A DNA stretch of 64,000 nt from a phage. Numbering within the stretch: the first letter of the stretch is position 1; each line of letters begins with the position of its first letter. The stretch is taken from assembly GCA_017864995.1 (NCBI GenBank), contig GCA_017864995.1_4097.1; one strand, given 5' to 3'. The notes under the pieces were generated by a model. The model saw only the letters and a list, made by a program, of their open reading frames with translations. It had not been told where the DNA came from and made no database searches. Both the position numbers and the translations under genes were made by a program. Below, in pieces: positions 27,493-62,758 of this stretch.

Positions 27493-27690
27493 ATGCGTAT
27501 TTTAACTCAAGAAGAGCACAACCACACACTCATATCCAACATGGCATATATCCTACATATGTCACATATCCGTGGTATTGCATATAAGCGTGAATTGGTT
27601 ATGAAACTTTTCATAGGAACTAACTATCAAGAAAAGTATATCGAACTATACTTACAAGAATTACGAAGGGACATAAAAGGTAGACTATGA
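27493..27690 (+). CDS. Fam2 small protein
   Basis: motif FIGTNYQEKYI; first of tandem array. Confidence 0.55.
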   Translation: MRILTQEEHNHTLISNMAYILHMSHIRGIAYKRELVMKLFIGTNYQEKYIELYLQELRRDIKGRL

Positions 27691-27881
27691 TAATTTTAAA
27701 TAAAGAAGAATATCAAGAACTGTTACGTAAAAACTACGTAAAGATTTACAATACAGACACACACGTAGAACGAATGGAGTTATACCTTTTGATTACTTTG
27801 GGAACTAACTATCAGGAAAGATGGGTGATTCAATATATGGATACATTGAAAAATAAAATATTGTCCACGAGGAAACAATGA
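27687..27881 (+). CDS. Fam2 small protein
   Basis: ITLGTNYQERWV; ATGA overlap. Confidence 0.55.
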   Translation: MIILNKEEYQELLRKNYVKIYNTDTHVERMELYLLITLGTNYQERWVIQYMDTLKNKILSTRKQ

Positions 27882-28087
27882 AAACTATAACACGAACCCA
27901 ATCATTCGGTCTTATCTTGAAATACATGGACTTAATGTTTGATATCAGCAAAGACCTTTCTAAAACTGAAATCCAAGTTGCAAGAGCAGAGATCCGCATG
28001 TTGGCTGTACTGAACACAAACCATCAGGAAGAGTATGTTGACGATTGGATTCATTTTTTAATAGAAGATATTAAGAGTAAACTATGA
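27878..28087 (+). CDS. Fam2 small protein
   Basis: AVLNTNHQEEYV. Confidence 0.55.
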   Translation: MKTITRTQSFGLILKYMDLMFDISKDLSKTEIQVARAEIRMLAVLNTNHQEEYVDDWIHFLIEDIKSKL

Positions 28088-28296
28088 TTTTTTTAACACC
28101 AGAAGAATATAAGATACGTTTTGTTTCTGTCCAGAATAAAATCTTAATTATATACAATTCAAATGCAGACCTTAACTTATCAAGGGTATTAGAAAAAGAT
28201 TTACTTATGGGTGCATTTTTGGATACAGACTTTCAGGAGTATTATGTAGGGGAATACTTAATTGCACTCCAGAATTACATTAAGAGTAAACTATGA
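28084..28296 (+). CDS. Fam2 small protein
   Basis: GAFLDTDFQEYYV. Confidence 0.55.
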   Translation: MIFLTPEEYKIRFVSVQNKILIIYNSNADLNLSRVLEKDLLMGAFLDTDFQEYYVGEYLIALQNYIKSKL

Positions 28297-28505
28297 ATAG
28301 CATTAACTCAAATCTATATACCGAACGCGTCGCTGCAAGACAACTTGAAATTCTCATAGTATATGAAGAGACTGATGATTTAAACTTAGCATTAGTATTG
28401 GAAAATGATATACTATTGGGTGCATTCCTCGGCACAGATTATCAGGAGCACTTCTTGAATGAGTATATAATTGCACTCCAGAAATACATTAAGAGCAAAC
28501 TATGA
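28293..28505 (+). CDS. Fam2 small protein
   Basis: GAFLGTDYQEHFL; close paralog of 28084. Confidence 0.55.
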   Translation: MNSINSNLYTERVAARQLEILIVYEETDDLNLALVLENDILLGAFLGTDYQEHFLNEYIIALQKYIKSKL

Positions 28506-28720
28506 AACATTTAAGTAATTCCGAGAAGAATAAAATTATCATTGCTGCAATAAACAAATATTTTACACTTCCTCACACAGAAGGTTTATGTGTAAGGGAA
28601 CACAGGATAAACACCACCGATATACGCATGATGGCTGTACTGGGGACGAACTTTCAGGAAGAGTATGTTGTTGCACACATAGTTGCCCTCACTGATCTAA
28701 TAAGGGACAAATGTAAATGA
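28502..28720 (+). CDS. Fam2 small protein
   Basis: AVLGTNFQEEYV. Confidence 0.55.
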   Translation: MKHLSNSEKNKIIIAAINKYFTLPHTEGLCVREHRINTTDIRMMAVLGTNFQEEYVVAHIVALTDLIRDKCK

Positions 28721-28974
28721 AACACTTAACTGATGATGAATTTGAAACTATAATTCGTAAACTAACCCCCATCACAAGGATAGTCTACGGTGACCCCAGC
28801 CTTACATGGAACCAAATGCGAGCTAAAGTTAATGAGCTATGGTTGCTGTACTTTATGGGGACTCAATATCAAGATAAGTTTTGCACAGAATATATCGAAC
28901 AATTAACGAATGTTATACAGGATAAACTAGATGATTATTTGCTCACAAAACATGAAGACTTTATCAGGAGTTGA
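28717..28974 (+). CDS. Fam2 small protein
   Basis: YFMGTQYQDKFC. Confidence 0.55.
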   Translation: MKHLTDDEFETIIRKLTPITRIVYGDPSLTWNQMRAKVNELWLLYFMGTQYQDKFCTEYIEQLTNVIQDKLDDYLLTKHEDFIRS

Positions 28975-29203
28975 GTATCAAACTGCCCTATTCTCTTTAA
29001 TCCATGCCCTTAGAAAAAACAATGCCTTATATGGTGCACCTGAAGTGGATGTTATCAACGGTGAACTTTATCTTATGAAATTCATTGGAACAAACTATCA
29101 AGATCTGTTCATTCAACGATACTTATCAGCATTAAGAAACCAAATCCAATATAAAACCATCAAGGCAAAAAAAGAATGGAATAAACAATGCGACACAGAC
29201 TAA
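28931..29203 (+). CDS. Fam2 small protein
   Basis: KFIGTNYQDLFI; alternative start at 28952. Confidence 0.5.
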   Translation: MIICSQNMKTLSGVEYQTALFSLIHALRKNNALYGAPEVDVINGELYLMKFIGTNYQDLFIQRYLSALRNQIQYKTIKAKKEWNKQCDTD

Positions 29204-29439
29204 ATCACAAAATGTATTGTAAACTATTGCAGACACTGGCACAGAAACACTATGACACGGTATCTGGAATATTACCCTATGATATCATGCGTTTACTTCA
29301 CTGTGAGGCCGAGATGCTTGTACTGATGACAGGCACAGATAAAAAAGCAATTGCCAAATCAATAGATATGTTCATCGAAGCACAATGTCAACACATTAGA
29401 ACCGAGATATGGAGGCGAGAGAATGATAACACTAAATGA
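29188..29439 (+). CDS. Fam2-like small protein (degenerate motif)
   Basis: LMTGTDKKAI in motif position. Confidence 0.45.
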   Translation: MRHRLNHKMYCKLLQTLAQKHYDTVSGILPYDIMRLLHCEAEMLVLMTGTDKKAIAKSIDMFIEAQCQHIRTEIWRRENDNTK

Positions 29440-29638
29440 GTATCAGTATCATTGGAGGTTACAAGCTATAAGAAGGAAAGTTGTTAGTATTTCTTTAGAC
29501 AAGTCTATTGCACAAGAGGACAAATGTGTTATAATAGCTGAAATGAAGTTGGGTGCTTTCGTAGGAACAAACTATCAAAACATCTACACTGACGTATTGT
29601 TAAGTGCCTTACGTAACAAGGTGATATCAAAAGAATGA
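29423..29638 (+). CDS. Fam2 small protein
   Basis: AFVGTNYQNIYT. Confidence 0.55.
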   Translation: MITLNEYQYHWRLQAIRRKVVSISLDKSIAQEDKCVIIAEMKLGAFVGTNYQNIYTDVLLSALRNKVISKE

Positions 29639-29853
29639 GAAAATTACAAGGCTTTGAATACATCAGACTCCTGAAAACATGTGCCAACAGAAGAGTAAAG
29701 ATTCAATCTGATAAGAGCATCCCTGCCAACCTAAAACATGCATTGATAGCTGAACTCTATGCAGGGGCACTCATAGGGACAAACTATCAACAAATGTATA
29801 TAGACATGTGGGTTGATGCATTAGTCAAGGAGGTCAAAAGTAAATGCAAATGA
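29635..29853 (+). CDS. Fam2 small protein
   Basis: ALIGTNYQQMYI. Confidence 0.55.
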   Translation: MRKLQGFEYIRLLKTCANRRVKIQSDKSIPANLKHALIAELYAGALIGTNYQQMYIDMWVDALVKEVKSKCK

Positions 29854-30062
29854 TTAATTTAAGTAAAGATGAATATTATGAACGTCTTGCAAAAACTTAT
29901 CCAGCACGTAACGCCGTTTATAATAGTAACATTATTGAACGCTCAAAGAAGTTGATTGTAGTAAATGAGATTAAGATGCTTTCAGTCTTAGGAACAAACT
30001 ATCAAGAGAATGCTGTACTGTTGTTAATTGATGCCCTCAAGAGAGAGATACAAAGTAAATGA
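29844..30062 (+). CDS. Fam2 small protein
   Basis: SVLGTNYQENAV; N-term MQMINLSKDEY. Confidence 0.55.
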   Translation: MQMINLSKDEYYERLAKTYPARNAVYNSNIIERSKKLIVVNEIKMLSVLGTNYQENAVLLLIDALKREIQSK

Positions 30063-30307
30063 TTAATTTATCTTTCCATGAATATCAAAAACGTTTAAAT
30101 GCATCAAGGGATATAAGGATTCAAATCTTTAATAACAAAAGATTGAAACCTGACACCAGAAGAATCAAAATAATAGAAGCAGAGTTATGCAACTTCCTGG
30201 GGACGAACCATCAGGAAGGTAAGATAAAAAACTATCTTAGAGAACTCATGATTTGTATCGAAAATAAATGTGAGGTTGATGAACATGCAAATGATCAATT
30301 TAAGTAA
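30059..30307 (+). CDS. Fam2 small protein
   Basis: NFLGTNHQEGKI. Confidence 0.55.
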   Translation: MINLSFHEYQKRLNASRDIRIQIFNNKRLKPDTRRIKIIEAELCNFLGTNHQEGKIKNYLRELMICIENKCEVDEHANDQFK

Positions 30308-30548
30308 AGATGAATATACCGAGCGTATGACAAAAATTACACACAAACGTAATACAATCTATCACGACCAAAAAATTCAACACAGTAAGAAAATGATTAT
30401 GATGCGTGAGTTAAAGATGGGTGTATTCTTGGGAACAAACTATCAAGAGCCAGAAGTAAATCGCTTAATCGCGGAGTTACTACTGGAAATCAGAGGTAAG
30501 CTGTACTTTCATCAAATGACCCAACCACTGAGGTGTACTGATCGATGA
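30285..30548 (+). CDS. Fam2 small protein
   Basis: VFLGTNYQEPEV; start MQMINLSKDEY as in 29844 gene (track 30270). Confidence 0.5.
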   Translation: MQMINLSKDEYTERMTKITHKRNTIYHDQKIQHSKKMIMMRELKMGVFLGTNYQEPEVNRLIAELLLEIRGKLYFHQMTQPLRCTDR

Positions 30549-30796
30549 ATGCGATGAATAAAATTAATAACATCAGAATAGCAGAAAGATTTGATAGACT
30601 TGGGGAAGCTCTGAGACGATACGATAAGGAATATGGTCATTTGAGCTTTTCTATAGAAAAGAGATATGAACTTGAAGCAGAGTTTAAAATGCAGTTCCTT
30701 TTAGGTACACAGTATCAAAACCAATATGTAGAAAAATGGATTTCACTTTTAATCCAGACAATTTACGTAAGGAACATTAAATGCAAAATGAAATGA
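30545..30796 (+). CDS. Fam2 small protein
   Basis: FLLGTQYQNQYV. Confidence 0.55.
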   Translation: MNAMNKINNIRIAERFDRLGEALRRYDKEYGHLSFSIEKRYELEAEFKMQFLLGTQYQNQYVEKWISLLIQTIYVRNIKCKMK

Positions 30797-31017
30797 TATA
30801 CTTAACACATGATGAGTTAACAGAAAGACTAGATAAATCCAAAAAACTTACAAAATATCTTCCACACAACCCAAACCAAACCCCAGCAGAAAGGAGTGCA
30901 GAAGTTTTATTTCATCAACTATCATACCTTCTTGGAACTGATAGACAAGAGTATCACATTGAACGTATAATTAAATATCTTAAAATTACTATTATGGAAA
31001 AAGTAAATGCAAAGTGA
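30781..31017 (+). CDS. Fam2 small protein
   Basis: YLLGTDRQEYHI; N-term MQNEMIYLTHDE. Confidence 0.55.
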   Translation: MQNEMIYLTHDELTERLDKSKKLTKYLPHNPNQTPAERSAEVLFHQLSYLLGTDRQEYHIERIIKYLKITIMEKVNAK

Positions 31018-31237
31018 AATGATATACTTAACGAATGAAGAATTTCAAGAGAAGATGTTAAAAGCCAATAACATTACTCTTAAGTTCGTTCCAAATCAAT
31101 CAATATATGAAATGTCTGCGAATGTATTGTTTCAGAAGCTACCATACGTTCTTGGAACTGATAAACAAGAATTTATGGTTCAAAATATGATTGAACATCT
31201 TGTAATGAGTATTAAGGAAAAAGTAAATGCAAAATGA
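31007..31237 (+). CDS. Fam2 small protein
   Basis: YVLGTDKQEFMV; N-term MQSEMIYLTNEE. Confidence 0.55.
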   Translation: MQSEMIYLTNEEFQEKMLKANNITLKFVPNQSIYEMSANVLFQKLPYVLGTDKQEFMVQNMIEHLVMSIKEKVNAK

Positions 31238-31484
31238 AATGAAATACTTAACAGACGATGAGTTAAAAGAACGATTAATTAAATCCAGAAAACTTACAAA
31301 TCAACTTCCAAACGACACAAACAAGTCACATGCCGAAAGGAGTGCAGAAGTTTTATACATTCAACTCCTGTACTTTCTTGGAACTGACAGACAAGAGTAT
31401 TACATTGAAAGTATGCTTCGATATCTTAAATTCTCTATAAAGGAAAAGATACATGCTCAAGAATTTAAAAATCCTAACAGTTAA
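31227..31484 (+). CDS. Fam2 small protein
   Basis: YFLGTDRQEYYI; N-term MQNEMKYLTDDE. Confidence 0.55.
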   Translation: MQNEMKYLTDDELKERLIKSRKLTNQLPNDTNKSHAERSAEVLYIQLLYFLGTDRQEYYIESMLRYLKFSIKEKIHAQEFKNPNS

Positions 31485-31695
31485 TGAATATCATAAGATT
31501 GTAATGAAAACTAATAGTGCAATTTCTAAAAAATCAAACCCAAAGTACATACTGGAACACACATTTGAAGAACGTCAATTAGCTTTAGTTGAAGCAAAAC
31601 TTCTTGCACTCCTAGGAACAAACTACCAAGAAGAATACATCAGAAAACTAATATACCTTTTAACTAAACACATCAGGAAAAGAAAAAAAGCATGA
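31453..31695 (+). CDS. Fam2 small protein
   Basis: ALLGTNYQEEYI. Confidence 0.55.
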   Translation: MLKNLKILTVNEYHKIVMKTNSAISKKSNPKYILEHTFEERQLALVEAKLLALLGTNYQEEYIRKLIYLLTKHIRKRKKA

Positions 31696-31922
31696 AGCAC
31701 TTGACAGATGATGAACATGGGCTTATAGTAATGGATGTAATCAACATCGAATACAAAAAGTTGATACGCTACCGTTGTTATGAAGATAAGCAACTCGTTC
31801 TAGCAGAACAGAAGTTGTTTCGACTCTTAAACACAAACTTCCAAGCACAATACGAAGAATCGTATATGTACCTTTTGGCGAGGAAAGCAAAAAGAGATTA
31901 TGAAAATTTTAAACCACAGTGA
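31692..31922 (+). CDS. Fam2 small protein
   Basis: RLLNTNFQAQYE. Confidence 0.5.
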   Translation: MKHLTDDEHGLIVMDVINIEYKKLIRYRCYEDKQLVLAEQKLFRLLNTNFQAQYEESYMYLLARKAKRDYENFKPQ

Positions 31923-32115
31923 ACAAACAGAATTGTTAATCTTTAATACAAGTAAATTCTTAAACATAACATTGTCTGATATAGATGAGGATGAAAAAGA
32001 GTTACTTAGAGCAGATTTAAGAGTTCTTTTATATGTTGGAACTAACTTCCAAGAGCAATTCGTTGAGGACTACATCGATGAACTTAAAGAATCTGTACTG
32101 AGAACATGCAAATGA
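31900..32115 (+). CDS. Fam2 small protein
   Basis: LYVGTNFQEQFV. Confidence 0.55.
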   Translation: MKILNHSEQTELLIFNTSKFLNITLSDIDEDEKELLRADLRVLLYVGTNFQEQFVEDYIDELKESVLRTCK

Positions 32116-32321
32116 AAATCCTTTCACCAAGTGAATACCACGAACTATTAAGTAGTTTAATTCTAAAATTGTATATAGCAAAGACCACAGATTTACCTGA
32201 TGAAGAAAAAAATATTCTAATGAGTGAAATCTATGTTCAAGCTACCCTAGGGACTAACTATCAAGAATGTAATATTAATGATTACATCAAAGAACTAAAA
32301 AGGTTTATCCAATGCAAATGA
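32106..32321 (+). CDS. Fam2 small protein
   Basis: ATLGTNYQECNI. Confidence 0.55.
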   Translation: MQMKILSPSEYHELLSSLILKLYIAKTTDLPDEEKNILMSEIYVQATLGTNYQECNINDYIKELKRFIQCK

Positions 32322-32563
32322 AAATCATTACCGAAGCAGAATACCTAACAATCATAAATGGACTGTTTTCGAAGTTATTTGCCATTAACACATCAAAACT
32401 TCCAGATACTGATAAAATTATTAAGTTAAATGAAATCTACGTTCAAGCAACTCTAGGAACAAACTATCAAGAAGCCAATGTGTATAATTACATTAATACA
32501 CTCAAAAGGGTAATACAATTAAAATGCACAGACAGCACAAACAGCCAATACACAAACCCCTAG
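32312..32563 (+). CDS. Fam2 small protein
   Basis: ATLGTNYQEANV; close paralog of 32106. Confidence 0.55.
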   Translation: MQMKIITEAEYLTIINGLFSKLFAINTSKLPDTDKIIKLNEIYVQATLGTNYQEANVYNYINTLKRVIQLKCTDSTNSQYTNP

Positions 32564-32763
32564 GAACAGCAGAATACATTGAACTAATGGCTGCAAACTT
32601 CTCATCCTTTAAGAAACTGATGCAAGAATCAAATAATGATTTAGAATATCATATCAAAAGTTCAGATTTAAGATTACTACTCACTCTAGGAACAGACAGT
32701 CAGTACAAATTCGTACAGGAACATATTAGAGCACTTTTAAATGGCATCAGGGATAAACTATGA
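32524..32763 (+). CDS. Fam2 small protein
   Basis: LTLGTDSQYKFV. Confidence 0.5.
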   Translation: MHRQHKQPIHKPLGTAEYIELMAANFSSFKKLMQESNNDLEYHIKSSDLRLLLTLGTDSQYKFVQEHIRALLNGIRDKL

Positions 32764-32975
32764 AGGAAATATCAAATCAAGAGTACTTGGCACTATTCAG
32801 GAAGAATAATCACAAATATATGGCACTTGATTCAAGAACTGATATAAGTGAACTTGAAAAAAATCTTTTGCGTTCAGAGATGATAGTACTGACACTCTTA
32901 GGAACACAGCATCAAGAGAGAACTGTTAATTCACACATAGGTATTCTTATACAGATAGTACAGGAAAAGATATGA
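32760..32975 (+). CDS. Fam2 small protein
   Basis: LLGTQHQERTV. Confidence 0.55.
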   Translation: MKEISNQEYLALFRKNNHKYMALDSRTDISELEKNLLRSEMIVLTLLGTQHQERTVNSHIGILIQIVQEKI

Positions 32976-33193
32976 GAATCATAACACAACAAGATATTCT
33001 TAAGTTCACAAGGGTTCATGCATCTGAATTTGATGCTATATTATCAAAAAGTTACAACAACCCTTATACAGAAGATGTACACTACAATGAATTATGGATG
33101 TATATACTTTTAGGTACAGATCATCAAGAGCAAGCAGTACAGAAGTATTTGTTAGCTTTACGTGATGCTACTGCTAATGGAGTACGTGTTTAA
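32972..33193 (+). CDS. Fam2 small protein
   Basis: ILLGTDHQEQAV. Confidence 0.55.
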   Translation: MRIITQQDILKFTRVHASEFDAILSKSYNNPYTEDVHYNELWMYILLGTDHQEQAVQKYLLALRDATANGVRV

Positions 33194-33194
33194 T

Positions 33195-33446
33195 ATGAAA
33201 GTACTGACAGAACTAGAAATGTATCATAGATTTAATAAGTACTATCATTTACTTAAGCCTATACAGAGAATTAAATGTCCATTTGAAGAGAAACAGGTTT
33301 TAATCTATGAGCACAAGTTCTTTGTATCATTAGGTACAGATCAACAAGAGTACTATTTGACGTTGTACTTGATTACATTAATAGATTTCATTCACTATAA
33401 AACCACACAATCTAAACAAGCTAAGAAAGAGCAATATGAAAACTAA
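33195..33446 (+). CDS. Fam2 small protein
   Basis: VSLGTDQQEYYL; start MKVLTELEMY (track 33162). Confidence 0.5.
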   Translation: MKVLTELEMYHRFNKYYHLLKPIQRIKCPFEEKQVLIYEHKFFVSLGTDQQEYYLTLYLITLIDFIHYKTTQSKQAKKEQYEN

Positions 33447-33774
33447 TATAAAACTCAAGGTATATAAATCATTTGCAAGTACATACATCAAATGCCATAC
33501 ATGTAACTCTGTAATGGACTACAAAGGTAAGCCATTTGCACTTACTTATGATAATACAAGAGGTTTTTATATATCTTTTGCTGATTACAAATATAACATA
33601 TACGAACACATTGACATTGAAGATTTAAGTACTTTATCCGAAGAGGAATACTTTCAAGAATCATTAGTATGGGATTTGGAGTTTCCTATGCCATTAGTAC
33701 ATAAGATGATAGTACTAATAAAAGAAACTAAACCTGTACCTAATGGTTATGAAGAACACATTATTGAGTATTAA
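33436..33774 (+). CDS. Fam3 protein (E-E-x-Y-F-Q motif family)
   Basis: motif LSEEEYFQESLVWD; N-term MKTNIKLKVY. Confidence 0.6.
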   Translation: MKTNIKLKVYKSFASTYIKCHTCNSVMDYKGKPFALTYDNTRGFYISFADYKYNIYEHIDIEDLSTLSEEEYFQESLVWDLEFPMPLVHKMIVLIKETKPVPNGYEEHIIEY

Positions 33775-33788
33775 TATATAAGGTAACT

Positions 33789-34130
33789 ATGAAAACTAAT
33801 ATACAACTCAATGTATACAGTTCAGAAGAACATACATATATCAAATGTAGTCTATGTAAAGATGTAATGGACTACAAAGGTAAGCCATTCACAATTACCT
33901 ATGATTCTGATGTTAATGATTTATATATATCATTTCTTAATTACGAAAATAAAATATACAAGCACGTTGATATTAAAGATTTAAGTACTTTATCACCAGA
34001 GGAATACTTTCAGGAATCGTTAGTATGGGATTTGGAGTTTCCTATGTCATTAGTACATAAAATGGTAGTCCAAATGAAAGAAGCTAAACCAGAGTTTAAC
34101 GGTTATGAAGAACACACAATTGAGTATTAA
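33789..34130 (+). CDS. Fam3 protein
   Basis: SPEEYFQESLVWD; close paralog of 33436. Confidence 0.6.
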   Translation: MKTNIQLNVYSSEEHTYIKCSLCKDVMDYKGKPFTITYDSDVNDLYISFLNYENKIYKHVDIKDLSTLSPEEYFQESLVWDLEFPMSLVHKMVVQMKEAKPEFNGYEEHTIEY

Positions 34131-34133: not shown

Positions 34134-34349
34134 ATGAAAAGATTATCATACGAAGATTATCGCAAGATTCGCGGTATGTTGCGACCAGAAATTCAAAGAA
34201 TTAATTCACTTCCTATATCTAATGCAGAATGTTCAGTACTGAAAGATGAGTTAATATTAAAACACACAGTAGGAACTAACTATCAAGCTGATAGTGTTCG
34301 ATATCTAATTTGGGGATTAATATGCATAATAAAGTCCAGACAAGCTTGA
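34134..34349 (+). CDS. Fam2 small protein (dispersed copy)
   Basis: HTVGTNYQADSV. Confidence 0.5.
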   Translation: MKRLSYEDYRKIRGMLRPEIQRINSLPISNAECSVLKDELILKHTVGTNYQADSVRYLIWGLICIIKSRQA

Positions 34350-34374: not shown

Positions 34375-34403
34375 ACCTGTACGTTAATCATGGGGTAAAA
34401 ATT

Positions 34404-34649
34404 ATGTTGAATTTTTTAAATTTCCTTATCGTCTTGTGTATTGTTCTTGGGATTGCACCATTTGTATTGTATTTCATGGAGTCCGATGAAATGCAAAAGA
34501 TGAATTGCACAAGGACAGGACAGAGTAGAGAAGAGACGATTCTTATGCCTGTTACCGTTATTGTTAATAATATGCCCATTACAAACATGGTCCCTACCCT
34601 AACGACAACGTACCAGTACTCTTGTACAGACGGAGAGAGGTGGAGATAA
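34404..34649 (+). CDS. small membrane protein (N-terminal TM helix)
   Basis: MLNFLNFLIVLCIVLGIAPFVLYF hydrophobic segment; own promoter. Confidence 0.45.
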   Translation: MLNFLNFLIVLCIVLGIAPFVLYFMESDEMQKMNCTRTGQSREETILMPVTVIVNNMPITNMVPTLTTTYQYSCTDGERWR

Positions 34650-34972
34650 TGCGTAAGTTCAATTGTATTGTACGTAAGAATTCATGTTACATTGTAGTAG
34701 CTGATTTTAATACAGGTTCTGGGTTGAAGATATTTGAGTACAGAAAATGCAATAATTCTTTTCATTGGAAATTGGGTGCAAGAAAAGCAAAAACAATTTC
34801 AGTACCGAATTTATGTTCTATCTCTGAAGAAGAAGAGTTTCAGTACTTGTTAGTACATGATGATTCTTTAGGATTTACATTCGAAGACATGAAGGAAGTA
34901 CAAAAGCAGATGATTGCACATTGTCATCTTCCAAAGAATTTTGTTCAACACGTATGTGAATTCTACATATAA
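34649..34972 (+). CDS. Fam3 protein
   Basis: SEEEEFQYLLVHDD; start MRKFNCIV after RBS GAGAGAGGTGGAG (track 34622). Confidence 0.55.
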   Translation: MRKFNCIVRKNSCYIVVADFNTGSGLKIFEYRKCNNSFHWKLGARKAKTISVPNLCSISEEEEFQYLLVHDDSLGFTFEDMKEVQKQMIAHCHLPKNFVQHVCEFYI

Positions 34973-34981
34973 GAGAAGAAT

Positions 34982-35293: not shown

Positions 35294-35312
35294 GAATATA
35301 CCTAATGCATAT

Positions 35313-54951: not shown

Positions 54952-54972
54952 AGACCCTTATGGGTCTTTTTG
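54952..54972 (+). terminator. rho-independent terminator
   Basis: AAGACCC-ttat-GGGTCTT then TTTTGTGTTT. Confidence 0.65.
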
Positions 54973-55602: not shown

Positions 55603-56186
55603 TGCAAGCTGAACACATTCAAATTATGAAATTGATGCATGACATTGCAGAACTATCTGAAAAGCACAACATTACTGAACATGAGCCTATTGGAAATTAT
55701 CGTCTTAAAGTTGAATGCAAATCACCATATCGTTTTGGTTCAGTAGTACTGGAGTCTTATAAAGTTTACGATTATGGAACGACGAAAAAAGGTTCATGGG
55801 ATACTATGGCAATGTATATCCGCACATCAAGGCATAGTGAGCGAATCGGTTCCATTACCCCAAACATGATATTTGTCAATGCTTTACATGAAGATATTAA
55901 TCGAATTGTCGAATCCAATTTTGATGACGTAGAGAATGATACATATTTGGAAATTCCACCAGAACTAGATCAATGTGAAGACATTCGCGAAGGATACATT
56001 TTTCAGAGATCAGTACTTGACAACTTCAAGGAGTTTGAGTACATGATGCTTTGCTATGAAACTGCAAAAGCTATTGACACTGGTGAATTGGTAATGTATA
56101 GTAAGTTCATTAACTGTGAATCCGATACATTAAAAGAGCTACACACGGCAATCAAAAACATCAAGGATACATATGAACGCTTATAG
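55602..56186 (+). CDS. Fam3 protein
   Basis: REGYIFQRSVLDNFKE. Confidence 0.5.
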   Translation: MQAEHIQIMKLMHDIAELSEKHNITEHEPIGNYRLKVECKSPYRFGSVVLESYKVYDYGTTKKGSWDTMAMYIRTSRHSERIGSITPNMIFVNALHEDINRIVESNFDDVENDTYLEIPPELDQCEDIREGYIFQRSVLDNFKEFEYMMLCYETAKAIDTGELVMYSKFINCESDTLKELHTAIKNIKDTYERL

Positions 56187-56751
56187 TTATATGACAGCCC
56201 GACACCAACAGCTATATGATATCAGTACAAAGATGCTACACATTGTTGGTAGTGCCAAAGAAATTAACAAACATTACCTCATCCGTGATGTGTCATTTTC
56301 ATCTAAATGTATGTCCAAAGAATATTACGATCACGGTATTCTTACTATTTCTGGTGCCAGGAATATTTGTATTGTAAAAAATAATAGTAAAAGTAATGAA
56401 GAGTGCGAGATTAGATCCGATATCCAAATTAATGATGATGGAAGTTTTTCACACCATCCATTTCATATTAGTACTGTTGGTGTTTTATATAATATTAAAG
56501 TACTATTCGGTGATAAAGAGTATGAGTTAAAAGCTATCAATCCAGAATCAAGTACAGTTGATGAAGAACTGTTTCAGATGAGCACCGTTATACCGGAAGA
56601 GGTTCTTAGTACTGTTGTTTTTTGTAGTTTAATTTATCACACATACAAAAAGAACCAGTTCGATTTCCACATTTTAGGAACGTACATCTTCAATACTTTG
56701 AATGTTGATCGTTTAAAAGCATTAAATGCAGCAATGGACAAGGTGCTATAA
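56173..56751 (+). CDS. Fam3 protein
   Basis: VDEELFQMSTVIPEE. Confidence 0.55.
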   Translation: MNAYSYMTARHQQLYDISTKMLHIVGSAKEINKHYLIRDVSFSSKCMSKEYYDHGILTISGARNICIVKNNSKSNEECEIRSDIQINDDGSFSHHPFHISTVGVLYNIKVLFGDKEYELKAINPESSTVDEELFQMSTVIPEEVLSTVVFCSLIYHTYKKNQFDFHILGTYIFNTLNVDRLKALNAAMDKVL

Positions 56752-57179
56752 TGACAAGAGATGAATGCTTATACATATGGGATATAATTGAAACTACACT
56801 TTCAAATCCAGAAAATTATAAAACAAAAAAAAGACAACGACACAAAATATGGATAGATTTGTTCGTTGAGGGCACACACGCAGTGACTATTTGGGATTCA
56901 CCGAGGGCATCATCATCTACTCTGTTGGACAATGAATGCATTGATTGCATTAATTCCAATTTTCATCTCCACGGTACTACATATTTCGGCACATTTCTGG
57001 ATATTGAAAGTAAAGATGATATTGATTCACTTGCTTTACAATACGGAGTACTGTATGATACTAAATTAATTTACGATTTAGTACTAGCTTCTTATGTGTA
57101 TAAATTAATGATGAAATACAATCACATTTCTGTATCAGTTTATACTAAGGATATTCTTTCATTAAGAGACAAAACATGA
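56751..57179 (+). CDS. Fam3-like protein (degenerate motif)
   Basis: IDSLALQYGVLYDTK. Confidence 0.45.
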   Translation: MTRDECLYIWDIIETTLSNPENYKTKKRQRHKIWIDLFVEGTHAVTIWDSPRASSSTLLDNECIDCINSNFHLHGTTYFGTFLDIESKDDIDSLALQYGVLYDTKLIYDLVLASYVYKLMMKYNHISVSVYTKDILSLRDKT

Positions 57180-57682
57180 GTTTATTAAATGCACGAGAAT
57201 TAGTTGAGATGTATGAGATCTTATCTTCATATAAAAATTCCCCAAAAGATGTAATTCTAAACAAAAAGTTCCATGTCAATGTTGATCATATGAAAAATAT
57301 AGATATGATTTCTTTAGTGGAAAGTCGTAAATCGGGTATTGAGCGTGATATCATGCGTTTGATTTATATTACCAAACCATCATATACTAATGATAGTTCA
57401 ATTAGTAATGAGACGTTTTTGTACACTCCTTATACTGATTGTACTTTAGTTTCAATGTCTAATCAGAAACAAGATACTATCCAATTCATCAATACCAGTA
57501 CTGATAACATTGAAGAAAATGAATTCCAAAACAATACATTAAGTTCATGTAGTAGTGTTATAACCTTTATGTCATATCTGTGGTCAATCAAATCAAATGC
57601 AATTGTATATAGTTCTAATTACACACAAGATTGTATTGTTGAATCATTTAAAGTTCTAAAGGAATACTATGAAAATAACTAA
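57176..57682 (+). CDS. Fam3 protein
   Basis: IEENEFQNNTLSSCS. Confidence 0.5.
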   Translation: MSLLNARELVEMYEILSSYKNSPKDVILNKKFHVNVDHMKNIDMISLVESRKSGIERDIMRLIYITKPSYTNDSSISNETFLYTPYTDCTLVSMSNQKQDTIQFINTSTDNIEENEFQNNTLSSCSSVITFMSYLWSIKSNAIVYSSNYTQDCIVESFKVLKEYYENN

Positions 57683-58250
57683 TGATTTTATTAGAAGCTT
57701 AGTGCACCCTATGCTTGGTGTTATGAAAAAACTACAGACTCTACCTGAAGACAACGATTACAAGTTTAATCGTTTTGATTCGGATGTGTTTTGTATTGAA
57801 ATGGAAATTAATAACAATCGTTATTTTCATTTAAAATTCAAAGAATCGTCGAGTTCGCACTACAACTTTGACATGAATTTTAAAATAAGCAATGATATTG
57901 AAGAAAACGCAATATCAAATCATATTAGCAGAAATGGTTTCATGCATAGAACTAATATGTTCAATAATAAAAACAGTATTATATCTAAATGGAATCATCA
58001 ATTCACTAAAATTTGTGATATTGATTGCAGTACATTTGGTGAAGAACAATACTTTCAGTTAAGTACAATACATGAACTTCCACCATATGATTGTGTAAAA
58101 ACATGGTTTGATATTCATAATATAATTGATGATGCAATCGTACTTCCATTTGGGTTGTCAATATCATATACTGCACCTAAAACGTTTGTTTTTACTGAAG
58201 ATATGATTATGAAAAAGATATGGGCGATGATGCCACTTATGCTTGATTAA
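57669..58250 (+). CDS. Fam3 protein
   Basis: GEEQYFQLSTIHELP. Confidence 0.55.
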   Translation: MKITNDFIRSLVHPMLGVMKKLQTLPEDNDYKFNRFDSDVFCIEMEINNNRYFHLKFKESSSSHYNFDMNFKISNDIEENAISNHISRNGFMHRTNMFNNKNSIISKWNHQFTKICDIDCSTFGEEQYFQLSTIHELPPYDCVKTWFDIHNIIDDAIVLPFGLSISYTAPKTFVFTEDMIMKKIWAMMPLMLD

Positions 58251-58261
58251 CGGAGAACTAC

Positions 58262-58813
58262 ATGAATCAAAGTCATGATCTTTTTAAATTATGTGCATCC
58301 AAAGATGTGGAAGGATGGGCAGATAAAATCAATACAATTATCAACCGTTATCTTGGCTTCTGTGCACGATCACGAAGTGAAGGTTCAATGCGTTTCCAAA
58401 TAACCATGACAATCGATGGTGTTACGATTTATGTCAACGAAGAGCGTCTTGGTATTAATCTCTATGATAGTTGTGTCTTTGCTATTCACCAGAAAATGGG
58501 GGCAGGTTGGGGTTGTAATAATATGAACACCAATGCTTTTTTCTGGGTAGGTCATAGCAACACAGTACTTGATCCTTCAACTAAATCAAACCTATTAGAT
58601 GATAATATCGTATATGATTTAGCTTACTCTGAAGAACAACATTTTCAGTTAAGTACATTGCATAATTTAGTCAAATATGAAGATTGTATCAAAGCATTAG
58701 AATTATGTCATTCACTTGAACTTAAAGAAAAATTGATACAAATTTACCCGTTGTTCTTCCATGAAGAAGTTCAATGCACTTTAGATCATATTTTATATGG
58801 GTACGACAAATGA
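58262..58813 (+). CDS. Fam3 protein
   Basis: SEEQHFQLSTLHNLV; paralog of 57669. Confidence 0.55.
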   Translation: MNQSHDLFKLCASKDVEGWADKINTIINRYLGFCARSRSEGSMRFQITMTIDGVTIYVNEERLGINLYDSCVFAIHQKMGAGWGCNNMNTNAFFWVGHSNTVLDPSTKSNLLDDNIVYDLAYSEEQHFQLSTLHNLVKYEDCIKALELCHSLELKEKLIQIYPLFFHEEVQCTLDHILYGYDK

Positions 58814-59412
58814 GAAAAAGTTATCAAGAAGCTATTGACCTAATTCGAGAAGTTATTAAGGTGGCTCCTGATGCGATAGCATTCAAGAAGTCCCTATATA
58901 AAAAGTATGGTCCCATGTCAAGTATGTGCTGTCAAAAGAAACGTAGTAAATTCACTACGCAGTACTGGCATGATTCTATTATCCTGAGTAATGAACATCA
59001 GCGTATTTTAACAATCGAATCAGTAGATAATCAATATGGTGAAGGAATGATTTGTGTTCCTGACTATGATGAAATTAATTTCAATTGTGGAGATTATGAG
59101 ACTACATTATTATTACACGAGGGTTACCCTGAAGGTGATGTAATGGCAGAGTATAACCCAAAAACCAAAATACTGAAACGTGGTATGCAGTTCAAAATCA
59201 ATAACAAAGATGATGTGGAAGCAGCACTAATGCAACTTAGTACTAGTGAACCTATCACTATTGATGTAGAAGAGTTATGGGGCATCATTTCAGTACTTAA
59301 TGAGTGTTATAAAATTAAATCATTACACAAGTACGCTATCATTTTACATACTAATTGTGCAATGATAAAATGCAAGAACATACAAGAGATGGCGGTTCCA
59401 GATGAACTTTAA
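58810..59412 (+). CDS. Fam3-like protein (degenerate motif)
   Basis: VEAALMQLSTSEPI; start MRKSYQEAI (track 58774). Confidence 0.45.
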   Translation: MRKSYQEAIDLIREVIKVAPDAIAFKKSLYKKYGPMSSMCCQKKRSKFTTQYWHDSIILSNEHQRILTIESVDNQYGEGMICVPDYDEINFNCGDYETTLLLHEGYPEGDVMAEYNPKTKILKRGMQFKINNKDDVEAALMQLSTSEPITIDVEELWGIISVLNECYKIKSLHKYAIILHTNCAMIKCKNIQEMAVPDEL

Positions 59413-59986
59413 AGAAATAGAAAGTAAAATTAAGTACTTTAAAGATATTAAAAAACTTTGGGAAAAGTATAAAATTGATTATCAATTCCAAGATGATGAT
59501 ACTGTTCAAAACATTGATATTAATATTCGTGTAAAGTTCAAGAATGGCAATTATGGCGAAGTTAAATTGAATGCTATTGGTGTATTCCTTAAGGATTATG
59601 ATGGTTCTTCACTCGCTCAATTCGATTTCACACCTGATCCTGATGATATGTTATTGAGTGAAGTCAATGCATATGACCTTGAGATGTTTAATGGTAAACC
59701 TTTACTATTCCGCTTATCAGATGAATGGGATGAGATTTACTACACATACAAAGATGGTGTGATTCGAGACGCAAATGATGAAGTAGTAAATGATATGGAA
59801 GAACGTCTATTTCAAGAATCATGTGTGTCATCGGAGTCATATACATATCAATATCTACTTGACATGTTCGATTTGTATAGTAAAATAGATTCAGAAATGA
59901 GTACATTGGGTATTCATTATCTTACAATCAACGACTTTGCACAACTTGAAACAGCGGTTAAAGCCCTGGTCAAAGTACTGAAATAG
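59402..59986 (+). CDS. Fam3 protein
   Basis: MEERLFQESCVSSES. Confidence 0.55.
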   Translation: MNFKEIESKIKYFKDIKKLWEKYKIDYQFQDDDTVQNIDINIRVKFKNGNYGEVKLNAIGVFLKDYDGSSLAQFDFTPDPDDMLLSEVNAYDLEMFNGKPLLFRLSDEWDEIYYTYKDGVIRDANDEVVNDMEERLFQESCVSSESYTYQYLLDMFDLYSKIDSEMSTLGIHYLTINDFAQLETAVKALVKVLK

Positions 59987-59995
59987 GAATGAATT

Positions 59996-60409
59996 ATGAA
60001 ACTGTATCATGCGAGTACTGTAAAAATTGATAACTTTTATATCCCGTATGGTGGCCTTCATATGGGAGGTAAACACAGTGCTTTAGAAGCTGCATTACGC
60101 AAGCTGAGAAGCCCACTGAACGTTGTTGACGCTGATACAGTATACTTGCATACCTTAGAAGTTGATGTTGATAACGTGCTTCTGTGGACGGATATGGGCA
60201 GTGACGACGAATGGCGTGGAGTGATTGAGTACTGCGAAATTAACGGCTATGATGCAGTTCAGTACAAAAACGATTACGAACCAGATACAGTTCCTAGCTA
60301 TATGATTTGGGATACGTCTAAGGTTCGCATTGTTGAAGTTGATGCTATGCACATGGATGACGCAGAAATGATCATCGAAGATTTCCTTGATGAATATGAA
60401 GGTGTATAA
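59996..60409 (+). CDS. hypothetical acidic protein (137 aa)
   Basis: MKLYHASTVKID; no FQ motif; higher GC than neighbours. Confidence 0.55.
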   Translation: MKLYHASTVKIDNFYIPYGGLHMGGKHSALEAALRKLRSPLNVVDADTVYLHTLEVDVDNVLLWTDMGSDDEWRGVIEYCEINGYDAVQYKNDYEPDTVPSYMIWDTSKVRIVEVDAMHMDDAEMIIEDFLDEYEGV

Positions 60410-60927
60410 TGATTGAACCTATGACAGTACTAGCACGTACTAAATTATTATTGAAGATTGCTGAAATATTCACTGTTCTTATGTACAATAATAAAGACAT
60501 AAATGACTTAGATATTAAGCAACCGTGGCAAATTACAAAGTTCACGGCGTTCCACCGATTGTCATATAATGGTGAAACTGTTCTTGATTTTAATCCAAAA
60601 GCCAAGTTCGTGAATTACGCTGCATTATATGGATGTAATGGTGGATTAACAAATGACTTCACTAAAATAAAAGTACAATCAGAATCATTAGAATTTAATG
60701 ACTTACTATATCCAGAATTTAAGTTAACTGAAGAATCACTATTTCAGTACTCACTAATTATAAAAGATGTATATGATCTTGAGTACTACAAAGAGTTAGT
60801 AGATATTTTTAAGAATACTCGACTTTCAAAAGATATTGTGATATTCTGGTATGTTGAGTATGTTACAGAGGAATTGCTTGAAGAATTTCTTCTAAATATG
60901 ACAGCAATCAAGGAGAAGTTATGTTAG
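60409..60927 (+). CDS. Fam3 protein
   Basis: TEESLFQYSLIIKD. Confidence 0.55.
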   Translation: MIEPMTVLARTKLLLKIAEIFTVLMYNNKDINDLDIKQPWQITKFTAFHRLSYNGETVLDFNPKAKFVNYAALYGCNGGLTNDFTKIKVQSESLEFNDLLYPEFKLTEESLFQYSLIIKDVYDLEYYKELVDIFKNTRLSKDIVIFWYVEYVTEELLEEFLLNMTAIKEKLC

Positions 60928-61394
60928 ACATTTTAGGAAACATCGATACAGCAAATTATTTTATTCAAGATGCACTGTTCAATACAGTACAGAAAGGGTT
61001 GGATGTACGATGTAATATCCATCAGGGAGATGGGTATTTTGTTGATATCACTGAAACACGCAAGAACGTGTTCAATTTAAACATTACCACATTGACACGT
61101 CAGAACATTGCACGTATTTTGGTTAATAAAGATGAAATAGTTCTTCGTTATAATTCCAAATTCTTGTTCACATACAAGAAGAAGACTGACATGTTCAGTA
61201 CTAATTTGTTTGATGAACCCTTCAATCTGGAAGACTTAGAAGCAACTTTCTTTACACAGAACACTATGCTGAAATTCAATGATGTTGAATTTTCATCAGA
61301 AGTAATGTCTGAAACACTACAAATGGTTAAGGTAGTATTCTATGCTTTTCAACAGTTTAACGAAGAACGAAACAAGGTTAACAACAACAGATGA
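60921..61394 (+). CDS. Fam3-like protein (degenerate motif)
   Basis: LEATFFTQNTMLKFN. Confidence 0.45.
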   Translation: MLDILGNIDTANYFIQDALFNTVQKGLDVRCNIHQGDGYFVDITETRKNVFNLNITTLTRQNIARILVNKDEIVLRYNSKFLFTYKKKTDMFSTNLFDEPFNLEDLEATFFTQNTMLKFNDVEFSSEVMSETLQMVKVVFYAFQQFNEERNKVNNNR

Positions 61395-61755
61395 ACTAAT
61401 CGCGGCGATGGAAGCCAATGAGAAATACTTCAATGGGATTCATTTTTTTAAAACGGATCTTAGTGAAAGTAAAGTACTATATGTGTATGGCTCCCAGTAC
61501 TGCATTGTTACAAAGCACCCCGATGCGATTTCACTAAAATTTAATACTTATTCAAAAAACTTCTTGACGATTAATAAAAGCAATGTTACTATGTCTGGTA
61601 TAGGGAATCAGGTTGTTGAGATTCCTTTGGACTCAATTGATTCTATTGAGTTCTTTCAATACGAGTGCTTAGGTGTTGATTTTGGTACTGTCAGTACTGA
61701 ATCTATGCGAACATTAATTAATTTACTTAAAGGTAAAGTTCATGCTTTTAACTAA
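61342..61755 (+). CDS. Fam3 protein
   Basis: DSIEFFQYECLGVDF; start uncertain. Confidence 0.45.
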   Translation: MLFNSLTKNETRLTTTDELIAAMEANEKYFNGIHFFKTDLSESKVLYVYGSQYCIVTKHPDAISLKFNTYSKNFLTINKSNVTMSGIGNQVVEIPLDSIDSIEFFQYECLGVDFGTVSTESMRTLINLLKGKVHAFN

Positions 61756-62242
61756 TTCGATGAAGTATTCATTTAAAATTATCAAAGAAATACTAAATGG
61801 ATCTAAAAATCATAGTGGGTCTTCCTTTACTAGTGACCAGATCCAACACAGTACAAAGGATTGTACTGTAATCTTTGGGTTACATAGTCTGCGTTTGACA
61901 ATAGTAAATAATATTGATAACACAGCAATTGTAATCACCCCATGTCATATTCAGAATGATACTGGTGTATACTTACACCACATGGGGACTGTATTCTACA
62001 TCTTCAATACTGAAGAAAACATTGTTAAAGAATACAACACACTCAATGTTGATGCAGGTGAGTTATTCCAATTGAGTACTGTCAATGATTGTAACTTCAG
62101 TGACAATGCAGAAGTACTTCCATTGTTTCTAAGTCTTCTCAATAACATGGAAAAACTAACCACTGCATACAACAAAAGTGACGTACCGCAAGCAGTATTG
62201 AATATCACCGAAGCAATGGAGAAATACAAAGCTGTGACCTAA
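61742..62242 (+). CDS. Fam3 protein
   Basis: DAGELFQLSTVNDCN. Confidence 0.55.
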   Translation: MLLTNSMKYSFKIIKEILNGSKNHSGSSFTSDQIQHSTKDCTVIFGLHSLRLTIVNNIDNTAIVITPCHIQNDTGVYLHHMGTVFYIFNTEENIVKEYNTLNVDAGELFQLSTVNDCNFSDNAEVLPLFLSLLNNMEKLTTAYNKSDVPQAVLNITEAMEKYKAVT

Positions 62243-62284
62243 TATATGTGCACATGGAGTGCCTTTGAAGATCAAGGATAGATC

Positions 62285-62758
62285 ATGGAGATTAAAACTG
62301 TTGAGAATGGAAAGATAGATGACATTTTAGAGTTGGACGCATTCAAAGTTCATGATATAATGTTCAATGTAAAGGACATAATTCAGTGCTTGTTTTTATG
62401 CAGTAAAACTATGCACGACTTCTTTCACAATCCAAATACTAATGTTTTCATACTAACAATCAGTACTAGTAATTCGTTTATCATGGGTATGCCTATGAGT
62501 ACAAATGACGAGTACATTGATTGTGTTATTCGTAACAATGATAATATTACCCCACAATCTGAAGTACGTAAGAAAAAGAATACATACACCATCAAAGATG
62601 ATAAAATCATGATGTGTTGTAGTAAAGGGTTTATTTTGGATAATTTTAAAGTGAAAGATAGTTATCATGATTTTAAAGTATCAGAGACACAAACTAATGT
62701 AGTTCTTTACGCAAGTGATATTGAAAGCCTAACAGTTAAAGATCCCGATTTGGAGTAA
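62285..62758 (+). CDS. hypothetical protein (157 aa)
   Basis: MEIKTVENGKID; no clear motif. Confidence 0.5.
   Translation: MEIKTVENGKIDDILELDAFKVHDIMFNVKDIIQCLFLCSKTMHDFFHNPNTNVFILTISTSNSFIMGMPMSTNDEYIDCVIRNNDNITPQSEVRKKKNTYTIKDDKIMMCCSKGFILDNFKVKDSYHDFKVSETQTNVVLYASDIESLTVKDPDLE

Follow-up and report, generated by a model that had tools for sequence, protein, structure and literature searches.

A 35-kb block of overlapping small genes beside the terminal repeat of an Asteriusvirus jumbo phage, and its probable expression from few long early transcripts

The window analysed here is a 64,000-nt stretch of phage DNA (NCBI GenBank assembly GCA_017864995.1, contig GCA_017864995.1_4097.1), in which positions 27493 to 62758, referred to below as the block, carry 96 plus-strand genes joined by 95 junctions. 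The block is probably expressed early in infection as a few long polycistronic mRNAs, which would be translated in a coupled manner and would arise from few sigma-70 promoters. Long transcripts are likely because conserved promoter-like sites are sparse and only three intrinsic terminators are recognisable. Two families of small proteins, designated FAM A and FAM B, occupy 26.1 of the 35.3 kb (74% of the block).

Megablast comparison placed all three parts of the window in Asteriusvirus (jumbo coliphages resembling 121Q, PBECO4 and phAPEC6), with matches to 36 records of Escherichia and Salmonella jumbo phages of 350-385 kb. The closest relatives are vB_Ec-M-J, EC.P1, Ecwhy_1 and fEgEco12 (95-99% identity), with vB_Ec-M-J being 95-97% identical to the block. 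The first and last bases of the direct terminal repeat (DTR) annotated for vB_Ec-M-J (21,525 bp, 1-21525) correspond to window positions 6583 and 27394, while the final base of the 20,993-bp DTR of fEgEco12, which PhageTerm defined and restriction digests corroborated (PMC13070987), aligns to window position 27395. With the edge of the repeat determined or annotated at 27394/27395 in two phages, the first gene of the block (27493) begins 98 nt past it. The window consists of right-end unique DNA (1-6582), one collapsed copy of the DTR (6583-27394) and left-end unique DNA from 27395, with genes on the plus strand throughout, and the unique gene regions right of the left terminal repeat begin with the block. 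The G+C content is 36-41% in the DTR (8000-28000) and 29-35% in the block (28000-64000), a drop which coincides with a change in gene architecture. All genes of the block are labelled 'hypothetical protein' in each of the five relatives inspected.

Gene packing and regulatory signals of the block

Genes were called from the first ATG of each non-nested plus-strand open reading frame (ORF), and their starts were checked against deposited annotations. With these calls, 88 of the 95 junctions (93%) are overlaps or gaps of less than 15 nt, bearing out the near-continuous packing described in an earlier note on this DNA. Overlaps make up 73 junctions (77%; median gap -4 nt): twenty-one are of 4 nt (20 ATGA and 1 TTGA), eight of 1 nt (7 TAATG and 1 TGATG) and forty-four of 7-62 nt. 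A further fifteen junctions have gaps of 1-14 nt, and six gaps reach at least 40 nt (after 34349, 36995, 43027, 51099, 54951 and 62242). In the depositors' annotation of the same block in vB_Ec-M-J, 67 of 91 junctions (74%) overlap (26 by 4 nt, 7 by 1 nt and 34 by 7-35 nt) and 81 (89%) are overlaps or gaps of less than 15 nt. In cellular genomes, by comparison, about 15% of co-directional gene pairs overlap on average (PMC6728339).

The style of packing switches at the DTR edge, from spaced genes with single promoters to overlapping genes. Within the repeat (8184-27243), four of 53 junctions overlap and six are overlaps or gaps of less than 15 nt, with a median gap of 83 nt and a coding density of 75%. 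At the right end of the genome (1287-6280), all 22 junctions are overlaps (six) or gaps of less than 15 nt (mostly 1-13 nt). The 50 kb which follow the block in vB_Ec-M-J, again all on the plus strand, have 88 junctions, with 38 overlaps (43%) and 61 (69%) overlaps or gaps of less than 15 nt; the block is significantly denser than this (Fisher p = 4e-5). Its packing exceeds the background by degree only. Past 62758 the dense same-strand run carries on, reaching at least 63771 in the window and a further 50 kb in vB_Ec-M-J. Large lytic phages as a rule have early and middle operons of densely packed co-directional genes, and long operons are normal for phage early regions. The suggestion that such a layout is unusual for small accessory genes is not supported, as the whole left arm of the genome is also compact and coded on one strand, and in the related phage CBB the minus strand holds 34 of 554 ORFs (PMC5259590). 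A single gene orientation extends genome-wide in this phage group. The dense overlapping layout of the block is extreme but of an ordinary kind for a phage.

The ORFs of the block have the properties of genes. Substitutions relative to SP27 and 121Q fall at codon position 3 in 44-55% of cases and are fewest at position 2, and dN/dS relative to SP27 is 0.25 for FAM A, 0.32 for FAM B and 0.22 for the remaining proteins. The mean energy of the predicted duplex with the anti-Shine-Dalgarno (anti-SD) sequence is -4.9 kcal/mol at starts versus -1.2 kcal/mol at random internal positions; values of -4 kcal/mol or lower occur at 69% of all starts and 70% of those at overlapping junctions, versus 11% of internal control positions. 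The SD sequences of downstream genes sit inside the upstream coding sequence. ATG is the start codon of 95 of the 96 genes, a count which the first-ATG calling rule itself favours. The reported lack of minus-strand genes was confirmed, as four of five annotated relatives call none and the lone call, a coding sequence of 66 aa in SP27 (window 34388-34588), is less conserved as a protein than the ORF it overlaps. Protein conservation is 82-94% for this call versus 88-98% for the overlapping plus-strand ORF, a small membrane protein, and the minus-strand call is probably spurious; codon-position counts are uninformative here because the third positions of both frames coincide.

A simple scan for sigma-70 sites gave no overall excess in the block (104 found versus 106 expected, and 102 versus 112). 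Sites matching at least 11 of 12 consensus positions number eleven on the plus strand and none on the minus strand, versus 2.0 +/- 1.3 per strand in dinucleotide shuffles; at 10 or more positions there are 33 on the plus strand, versus 20.9 +/- 4.1 in shuffles, and 13 on the minus strand. Promoter-like sites occur in or at the rare gaps of the block at 27435, 34346, 39590, 51096 and 54983, while most of the near-consensus plus-strand sites lie inside coding sequence, often 30-110 nt ahead of the next start. Conservation was judged in phages ph0011, SP27 and 121Q (82-88% identical). Seven sites (the five in gaps together with 38099 and 59859) largely keep their hexamers while spacers or flanks vary, the exceptions being a few single-base changes, each in one relative. 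Near-consensus sites 40962 and 56074 are lost in relatives, and for 30942, 31701 and 44596 conservation is uninformative or weak. The earlier count of about five promoters is right as to the five gap sites but is an undercount, with at least seven conserved candidates and eleven near-consensus sites present. Similarly, the one strong terminator reported before gives way to three conserved terminator-like hairpins (T1 to T3), the stems of which are unchanged in relatives (Table 1); T1 and T2 are each followed by a promoter-like site less than 30 nt downstream.

Conserved promoter-like sites are found about once per 5 kb in the block versus once per 0.5 kb in the adjacent DTR, where nearly every intergenic space contains TTGACA or TTGCAA, 16 nt and TATAAT, and where sites matching at least 10 of 12 positions number 38 on the plus strand versus 4.8 expected. 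Units between conserved promoters in the block span 1.5-11.5 kb and 4-30 genes, and terminator-bounded units span 12.1, 15.4 and 7.9 kb with 45, 36 and 16 genes, respectively. A repeated cassette of promoter and stem-loop (PeSL, promoter-early stem-loop) was not found in the block, where 88 of 95 junctions have no intergenic space, and its few gaps share no common cassette. A search for the 'TGAAACG...TATA' promoter motif of CBB gave one to two matches and nothing useful, the T4-late-like motif TATAAATA gave none, and no Rfam families or tRNAs were found in the window. The largest non-coding gap (Table 1) is 92% identical in SP27 and 121Q, above its flanks; its G+C-rich patches read GGCCGCAGGGGGGGTC ... 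ACCCCGCCGCG, and it showed no excess RNA structure (z = -0.9) and no Rfam match.

Table 1. Coordinates of genes, gene groups and candidate signals in the block and the adjoining repeat (promoter-like sites are given as -35 hexamer, spacer length and -10 hexamer)
Feature	Position	Strand	Description
DTR equivalent	6583-27394	+	About 54 small genes, median spacing 83 nt, most with their own near-consensus sigma-70 promoter
Promoter-like site P1	27435-27462	+	TTGACT-16-TATTAT; hexamers kept in SP27 and 121Q; 40 nt past the DTR edge, 31 nt ahead of the first gene
FAM B array	27493-33446	+	27 consecutive small genes, 26 of them FAM B (profile clustering)
FAM A pair	33436-33774, 33789-34130	+	Two FAM A genes, tandem duplicate
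FAM B gene	34134-34349	+	Follows the FAM A pair
Promoter-like site P2	34346-34374	+	TTGACA-17-TATAGT with TG; overlaps the stop codon of the preceding gene; hexamers kept in SP27 and 121Q; ph0011 keeps the -10 and has TTGACG at -35; spacer varies
Gene group	34404-39571	+	About 16 genes: FAM A and FAM B members, unassigned ORFs, a membrane protein
Small membrane protein	34404-34649	+	
Intragenic promoter-like site	38099-38128	+	TTGACA-18-TATTAT with TG; 70 nt ahead of the gene start at 38198; hexamers kept in ph0011 and SP27 despite flanks 77-78% identical; -35 is TTGATA in 121Q
Terminator-like hairpin T1	39559-39580	+	9-bp stem, then TTTTTTT; overlaps the stop of gene 39074-39571; stem unchanged in ph0011, SP27 and 121Q
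Promoter-like site P3	39590-39618	+	TTGACA-17-TACAAT with TG; -35 kept; SP27 and 121Q retain a -10 (TATCAT) although the spacer has diverged; likeliest start of the downstream gene is 39644, with an AAGGAG SD
Gene group	39644-51099	+	About 27 genes, mostly FAM A, without a recognisable terminator
Largest non-coding gap	43028-43222		195 nt; A+T-rich core between two G+C-rich patches
Five consecutive FAM A paralogs	44322-46634	+	
Two FAM B genes	48341-48728	+	
Promoter-like site P4	51096-51125	+	TTGACA-18-TATAAT with TG, 12/12; hexamers kept, spacer changes
Gene group	51159-54951	+	Eight genes, seven of them FAM A
Terminator-like hairpin T2	54950-54969	+	8-bp stem, then a T run; kept in SP27 and 121Q
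Promoter-like site P5	54983-55011	+	TTTACA-17-TATAAT with TG; conserved
Gene group	55039-62892	+	Sixteen genes of 137-212 aa (FAM A and unassigned), ending with the DUF7230 ORF
Intragenic promoter-like site	59859-59886	+	TTGACA-16-TAAAAT; 110 nt ahead of the gene start at 59996; kept in SP27 and 121Q; flanks 81% identical
DUF7230 ORF	62761-62892	+	43 aa; E = 6.6e-17; just past the end of the block
Terminator-like hairpin T3	62870-62890	+	8-bp stem, then a T run, in the last codons of the DUF7230 ORF; conserved

The two protein families and the growth of their arrays

BLASTP followed by iterated clustering with hidden Markov model profiles placed 74 of the 99 proteins encoded from 27493 to 64000 in families. 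FAM B has 31 members of 58-93 aa, which are 15-34% identical to the first member; those outside the main array are encoded by genes at 34134, 35313, 35462, 48341 and 48537. They share the motif LGTNYQE, in which Q is invariant, with G, T and a downstream L occurring in at least 90% of the 31 sequences. The AlphaFold model is a three-helix bundle (pLDDT, predicted local distance difference test, 96.4), and a Foldseek search of the PDB gave no match to it (best E 3.5, TMq 0.46).

The 41 members of FAM A are 103-214 aa long and share the motif EExx(Y/L/F)FQxS, in which F and Q are invariant. Three to five further proteins share this motif at an equal distance from the C-terminus, giving a total of 41-46 copies. 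The members are soluble and acidic (median isoelectric point 4.8) and the model shows an alpha/beta fold (pLDDT 89.8; predicted template modelling score 0.84), which was also without a match in the PDB using Foldseek (best E 3.5, best TM-score 0.19). In a viral structure library, the fold was found among uncharacterised proteins of phages 121Q, SP27, RaK2 (five accessions, H6X4L9 to H6X4P6), GAP32, Yersinia phage fHe-Yen9-03, Serratia phage BF and Erwinia phages, and in this library it is limited to Rak2-like jumbo phages. FAM A and FAM B are unrelated to one another by hhalign.

The FAM A motif resembles the cleavage sites of the TEV (ENLYFQ/S or G) and 3C (LEVLFQ/GP) proteases, examples being residues 113-120 of the product of 44322-44813, EEGYFQGS in 47384-47830 and EEMYFQGS in 51635-52117. 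This resemblance may be coincidental; no supporting evidence for a protease site was obtained, and the motif lies in a short helix of the model.

In a profile search of 5.8 billion proteins, all matches to either family came from contigs of about 350 kb resembling Asteriusvirus or from E. coli assemblies, the matching proteins being without Pfam domains, and tblastn matches were confined to 36 phage records. A Pfam scan of the 99 proteins identified DUF7230 on the 62761-62892 ORF only, with none of the 96 block proteins matched. NCBIfam gave no matches to block proteins, PADLOC gave chance-level matches only, none of them credible, every PHROG matched is of unknown function, and sequence-profile searches of the PDB gave E values above 0.2. 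In ph0011, the homologue of 59996-60409 is labelled 'putative ADP-ribosyl transferase', a label which is unsupported, with no Pfam match at E up to 0.1. The reduction of this 35 kb to two families, along with their motifs and folds, seems to be undescribed in the literature searched.

In the accessible part of the phAPEC6 study (PMC7247149), the virion proteome table jumps from gp347 to gp549, and the one FAM A homologue mapped is gp442c. As gp442c falls outside the virion proteins given there, the products of the block appear to be non-structural. The block is probably a non-structural, early or delayed-early region; a role in host takeover or in countering host defences is a guess from its position, the small size of its proteins, their rapid evolution and their restriction to one lineage.

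Four relatives carry 26-33 copies of FAM B and 37-41 of FAM A; such similar numbers across the genus indicate that the expansions predate the diversification of Asteriusvirus. Paralogs within the families are 15-35% identical, and each is kept as a separate ortholog under purifying selection. The arrays are old. Recent tandem repeats amount to one 356-bp two-copy repeat at 33435-34130 (80% DNA identity) and a few pairs of 70-84% identity, and the 44322-46634 cluster also counts among the few recent duplicates. The FAM B array aligns to that of EC.P1 in stretches of 97% identity, which are broken by one-gene insertions or deletions (indels), and the breakpoints straddle gene junctions (window 28713-28729 and 29842-29899). 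All 26 junctions between FAM B genes overlap, twelve of them being of the ATGA type. The 76-nt gap at 36996-37071 holds a degenerate, truncated copy of the 5' end of a neighbouring paralog (ATGAAGTATAA..., M-K-Y-stop), and the adjoining FAM A gene (37072-37578) has no separate counterpart in ph0011, SP27 or 121Q. This absence, together with the adjoining scar, suggests a recent insertion of a single gene. The one-gene indels at junctions, the scar and the FAM B overlaps indicate that unequal recombination at junctions alters the arrays one gene at a time. The proposal that they evolve as units is not supported: genes are gained and lost singly at junctions, among paralogs of 15-35% identity with dN/dS of 0.22-0.32.

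Proposed expression of the block and alternative explanations

The transcripts of the block are probably long and polycistronic, as judged from the arrangement of its signals. In the reading favoured here, the host sigma-70 RNA polymerase would read the block from left to right, starting at 27435, 34346, 38099, 39590, 51096, 54983 and 59859, and read-through from the promoter-rich DTR may contribute. Intrinsic termination at 39559, 54950 and 62870 would give mRNAs of 4 to about 45 cistrons and 1.5-15 kb. The SD sequence of each cistron would lie at the 3' end of the gene before it, and three quarters of stop and start codons overlap. With stops and starts overlapping and SD sequences embedded in this way, ribosomes could re-initiate on the next gene or unfold its start, and such a handover would give roughly even expression along an array. 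The paralogs would be co-expressed early, after or alongside the individually promoted genes of the DTR. FAM A and FAM B would have grown by tandem duplication and unequal recombination at junctions, followed by retention under purifying selection. Such timing has parallels in other jumbo phages. In PA5oct, a distant relative, the genes of the DTR are strongly transcribed early in a manner dependent on the host RNA polymerase (PMC7318152), and in CBB, RpoD-like promoters cluster in a region of short ORFs presumed to be early (PMC5259590).

Several points weigh against this reading. A literature search found no transcriptome or ribosome data for Asteriusvirus. Half of the overlaps (7-62 nt) are longer than the overlaps of 1 and 4 nt for which termination-reinitiation has been demonstrated, and coupling is not required for translation because most starts have their own SD sequence. 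Four further near-consensus sites on the plus strand, although poorly conserved, may fire in the phage of the window, promoters for the phage's own sigma factors may exist beyond what consensus scans recognise, and RNase processing may shorten the mRNAs. In addition, searches of Pfam, NCBIfam, PADLOC, PHROGs and the PDB assigned no function to any of the 96 proteins.

The overlaps could instead be a passive by-product of genome compaction and array growth, with no selected role in coupling, a possibility that is not negligible but is considered unlikely. Units of duplication would carry their junctions along with them, and loss of stop codons would extend genes into their neighbours. The uniform overlap of the 26 FAM B-FAM B junctions, twelve of one ATGA type as if inherited with the unit, agrees with this, as do indels between close relatives which fall exactly on junctions, the length of half of the overlaps (7-62 nt) and the presence of an own SD at 69% of starts. 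Against it, compaction is uneven, the adjacent DTR being 25% non-coding with gaps of about 83 nt, and packing in the block is significantly tighter than over the following 50 kb. Overlaps and embedded SD sequences also persist in relatives which have diverged by 12-18%, and of 14 cellular gene pairs tested that overlap in this way, 13 showed strictly coupled translation (PMC6728339).

Expression mainly by read-through from the approximately 40 strong promoters of the DTR, with the block forming the distal part of very long early transcripts, is regarded as doubtful. From the last DTR gene (27034-27243) to 27493 there is no terminator-like hairpin with a trailing T run, few terminators occur within the DTR, and all genes share one orientation, all of which would permit such read-through. 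A conserved promoter-like site (27435) is, however, found just outside the repeat and ahead of the first gene, and Rho-dependent termination may occur in the untranslated gap of 249 nt. The abrupt change in G+C content and gene spacing at the DTR edge also argues against read-through as the main source, as it suggests a separate regulatory unit.

It is improbable that the transcripts are mostly short, owing to many internal promoters (of host type or for phage sigma factors) and to RNase processing. The plus-strand excess of near-consensus sites, most of them inside coding sequence, would fit such an arrangement, and Rak2-like phages encode RpoD-like and gp55-like sigma factors (PMC5259590, PMC11895373); the conserved 195-nt gap at 43028-43222, to which no signal was matched, may be counted on the same side. 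However, of the seven near-consensus sites inside genes, just two are conserved in relatives, and even all eleven near-consensus sites together would be spaced by about 3 kb, or about nine genes. Internal starts would still give long, co-terminal transcripts because there are only three terminators, and the block lacks a repeated intergenic cassette like that of the DTR.

That many of the small ORFs are not genes, and that ORF calling in A+T-rich DNA has created their tiling artificially, is contradicted by the present analysis and extremely improbable: none of the 96 proteins has a Pfam match and many are shorter than 90 aa, but substitutions concentrate at codon position 3 with dN/dS of 0.22-0.32, families with invariant motifs are detectable by profiles, the models are confident (pLDDT 96 and 90), SD sequences precede the starts and five independent annotations agree.

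A further and only tentative proposal concerns the purpose of the block: its more than 70 individually conserved paralogs, of two jumbo-phage-specific folds without a solved relative, might form a combinatorial arsenal, made together early in infection from few coupled operons. Each paralog might be adapted to its own host target or defence variant; alternatively, paralogs might assemble into mixed oligomers. The EExxFQxS motif of FAM A and the LGTNYQE motif of FAM B would then be shared functional sites. The switch at the DTR edge, from cassettes with one promoter per gene to long operons, would constitute a built-in two-stage early programme.

Neighbouring DNA and comparison with known systems

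In the DTR, nearly every spacer follows the order AGTACT, TTGACA or TTGCAA, 16 nt, TATAAT and GTTTTACATCAA. About half of these spacers contain a conserved G+C hairpin (e.g., GGGGAGA-loop-TCTCCCC) between the predicted transcription start and the SD. A different hairpin, with a 12-bp stem (AAAGGGATTGACTCCGGTCAGTCCCTTT), occurs in four copies (16241-16268, 19902-19929, 23169-23196 and 25923-25950), with a -35-like TTGACT within the stem followed by TATTAT. These copies lie in four of the larger gaps of the DTR (167-315 nt), as if marking the boundaries of modules.

The palindrome AGTACT is over-represented in the DTR (140 sites versus 6.1 expected, 23-fold), in 27395-64000 (94 versus 9.4, 10-fold) and in 1-6582 (47 versus 4.0), and the excess is about 10-fold in a further 50 kb of vB_Ec-M-J and in three other relatives. 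The next best palindromic hexamer reaches 2.7-fold in the DTR, 2.5-fold in the block and 5.7-fold, on seven sites, in the right-end segment. Within genes the sites fall in all three reading frames, with a patchy distribution (none at 28-32 and 36-42 kb), and they are better conserved than matched hexamers (77% versus 52% in SP27 and 71% versus 40% in 121Q). AGTACT may be a site of protein binding or modification; no report of its over-representation was found in the literature.

A third tandem family is encoded at 1511-6280, at the right end of the unique genome before the DTR. Its 21 paralogs, each about 60 aa long, carry a KEYY motif at the N-terminus and one invariant Y, and the family is unrelated to FAM B by hhalign. 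Its junctions are mostly gaps of 1-13 nt, and the region has a G+C skew of -0.16 to -0.20 although its genes are on the plus strand. Across the left DTR edge, about 1.9 kb (6281-8183) contain no credible ORFs and include a change in the sign of the G+C skew, and a short hairpin (6584-6603) lies precisely where the first bases of the genome of vB_Ec-M-J align.

Several coliphages of this kind have been proposed for therapy. About 83% of the genes of such 350-kb coliphages lack annotation (PMC7247149). With a tenth of the genome (35 kb) mostly reduced to two families that have confident but unmatched folds, the block offers a tractable entry point, and work on a single member of each family, by structure determination or pull-down, would be informative for more than 70 genes per genome. 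The change of architecture at the DTR edge likewise yields a two-stage model of early expression, and its coincidence with that edge is apparently undescribed in the literature searched.

The architecture and content of the block fall within known kinds, namely phage early operons and lineage-specific expansion of multigene families. Like the prereplicative units of phage T4 and the pre-early and early genes of phage T5, it consists of many small, apparently non-structural, co-oriented genes near a genome end. In T5, pre-early genes are located in the terminal repeat and are followed by early genes. The proposed expression of the block also resembles that of T4 and T5 in the use of the host sigma-70 polymerase, overlapping polycistronic mRNAs and frequent ATGA junctions (PMC2988021 for T4). 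It differs in having 96 genes in 35 kb, in that 77% of its junctions overlap and in that two paralog families make up three quarters of it.

The 39-kb DTR of PA5oct is packed with small uncharacterised genes that show high early transcription from the Watson strand; rifampicin blocks infection, and the promoters are of the TTGAC/TATAATA type (PMC7318152). Unlike that region, the block lies outside the repeat and differs from the repeat in architecture. The PA5oct transcript map is based on short reads and gives no operon structure for a homologous region (PMC7318152).

Amplification of small phage-specific proteins into large families within a genome is known from Bacillus phage G, where about 35 copies of a zinc ribbon were called 'unprecedented' in a comparative survey (PMC7824862), and from RaK2, with 'nearly 10% paralogues' (PMC3622015). 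FAM A (41-46 copies) and FAM B (31 copies) match or exceed the number in phage G (PMC7824862); unlike the zinc ribbons, to which they are unrelated, they have no known domain and form overlapping tandem arrays.

The neighbouring DTR, rather than the block, resembles the PeSL cassettes of T4-type phages (PMC2839356, PMC4122927), and by this analogy it would represent a very long series of them (PMC4122927). In the block, genes abut or overlap, and indels of junction-to-junction units take the place of cassette-mediated shuffling. With known termination-reinitiation systems (PMC6728339, PMC10666635) the block shares SD sequences inside the upstream gene and 29 junctions of the ATGA or TAATG/TGATG kinds, while its 44 overlaps of 7-62 nt fall in a range where coupling is less established. 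Cellular coupled pairs often encode the subunits of one complex, whereas the junctions of the block link dozens of paralogs.

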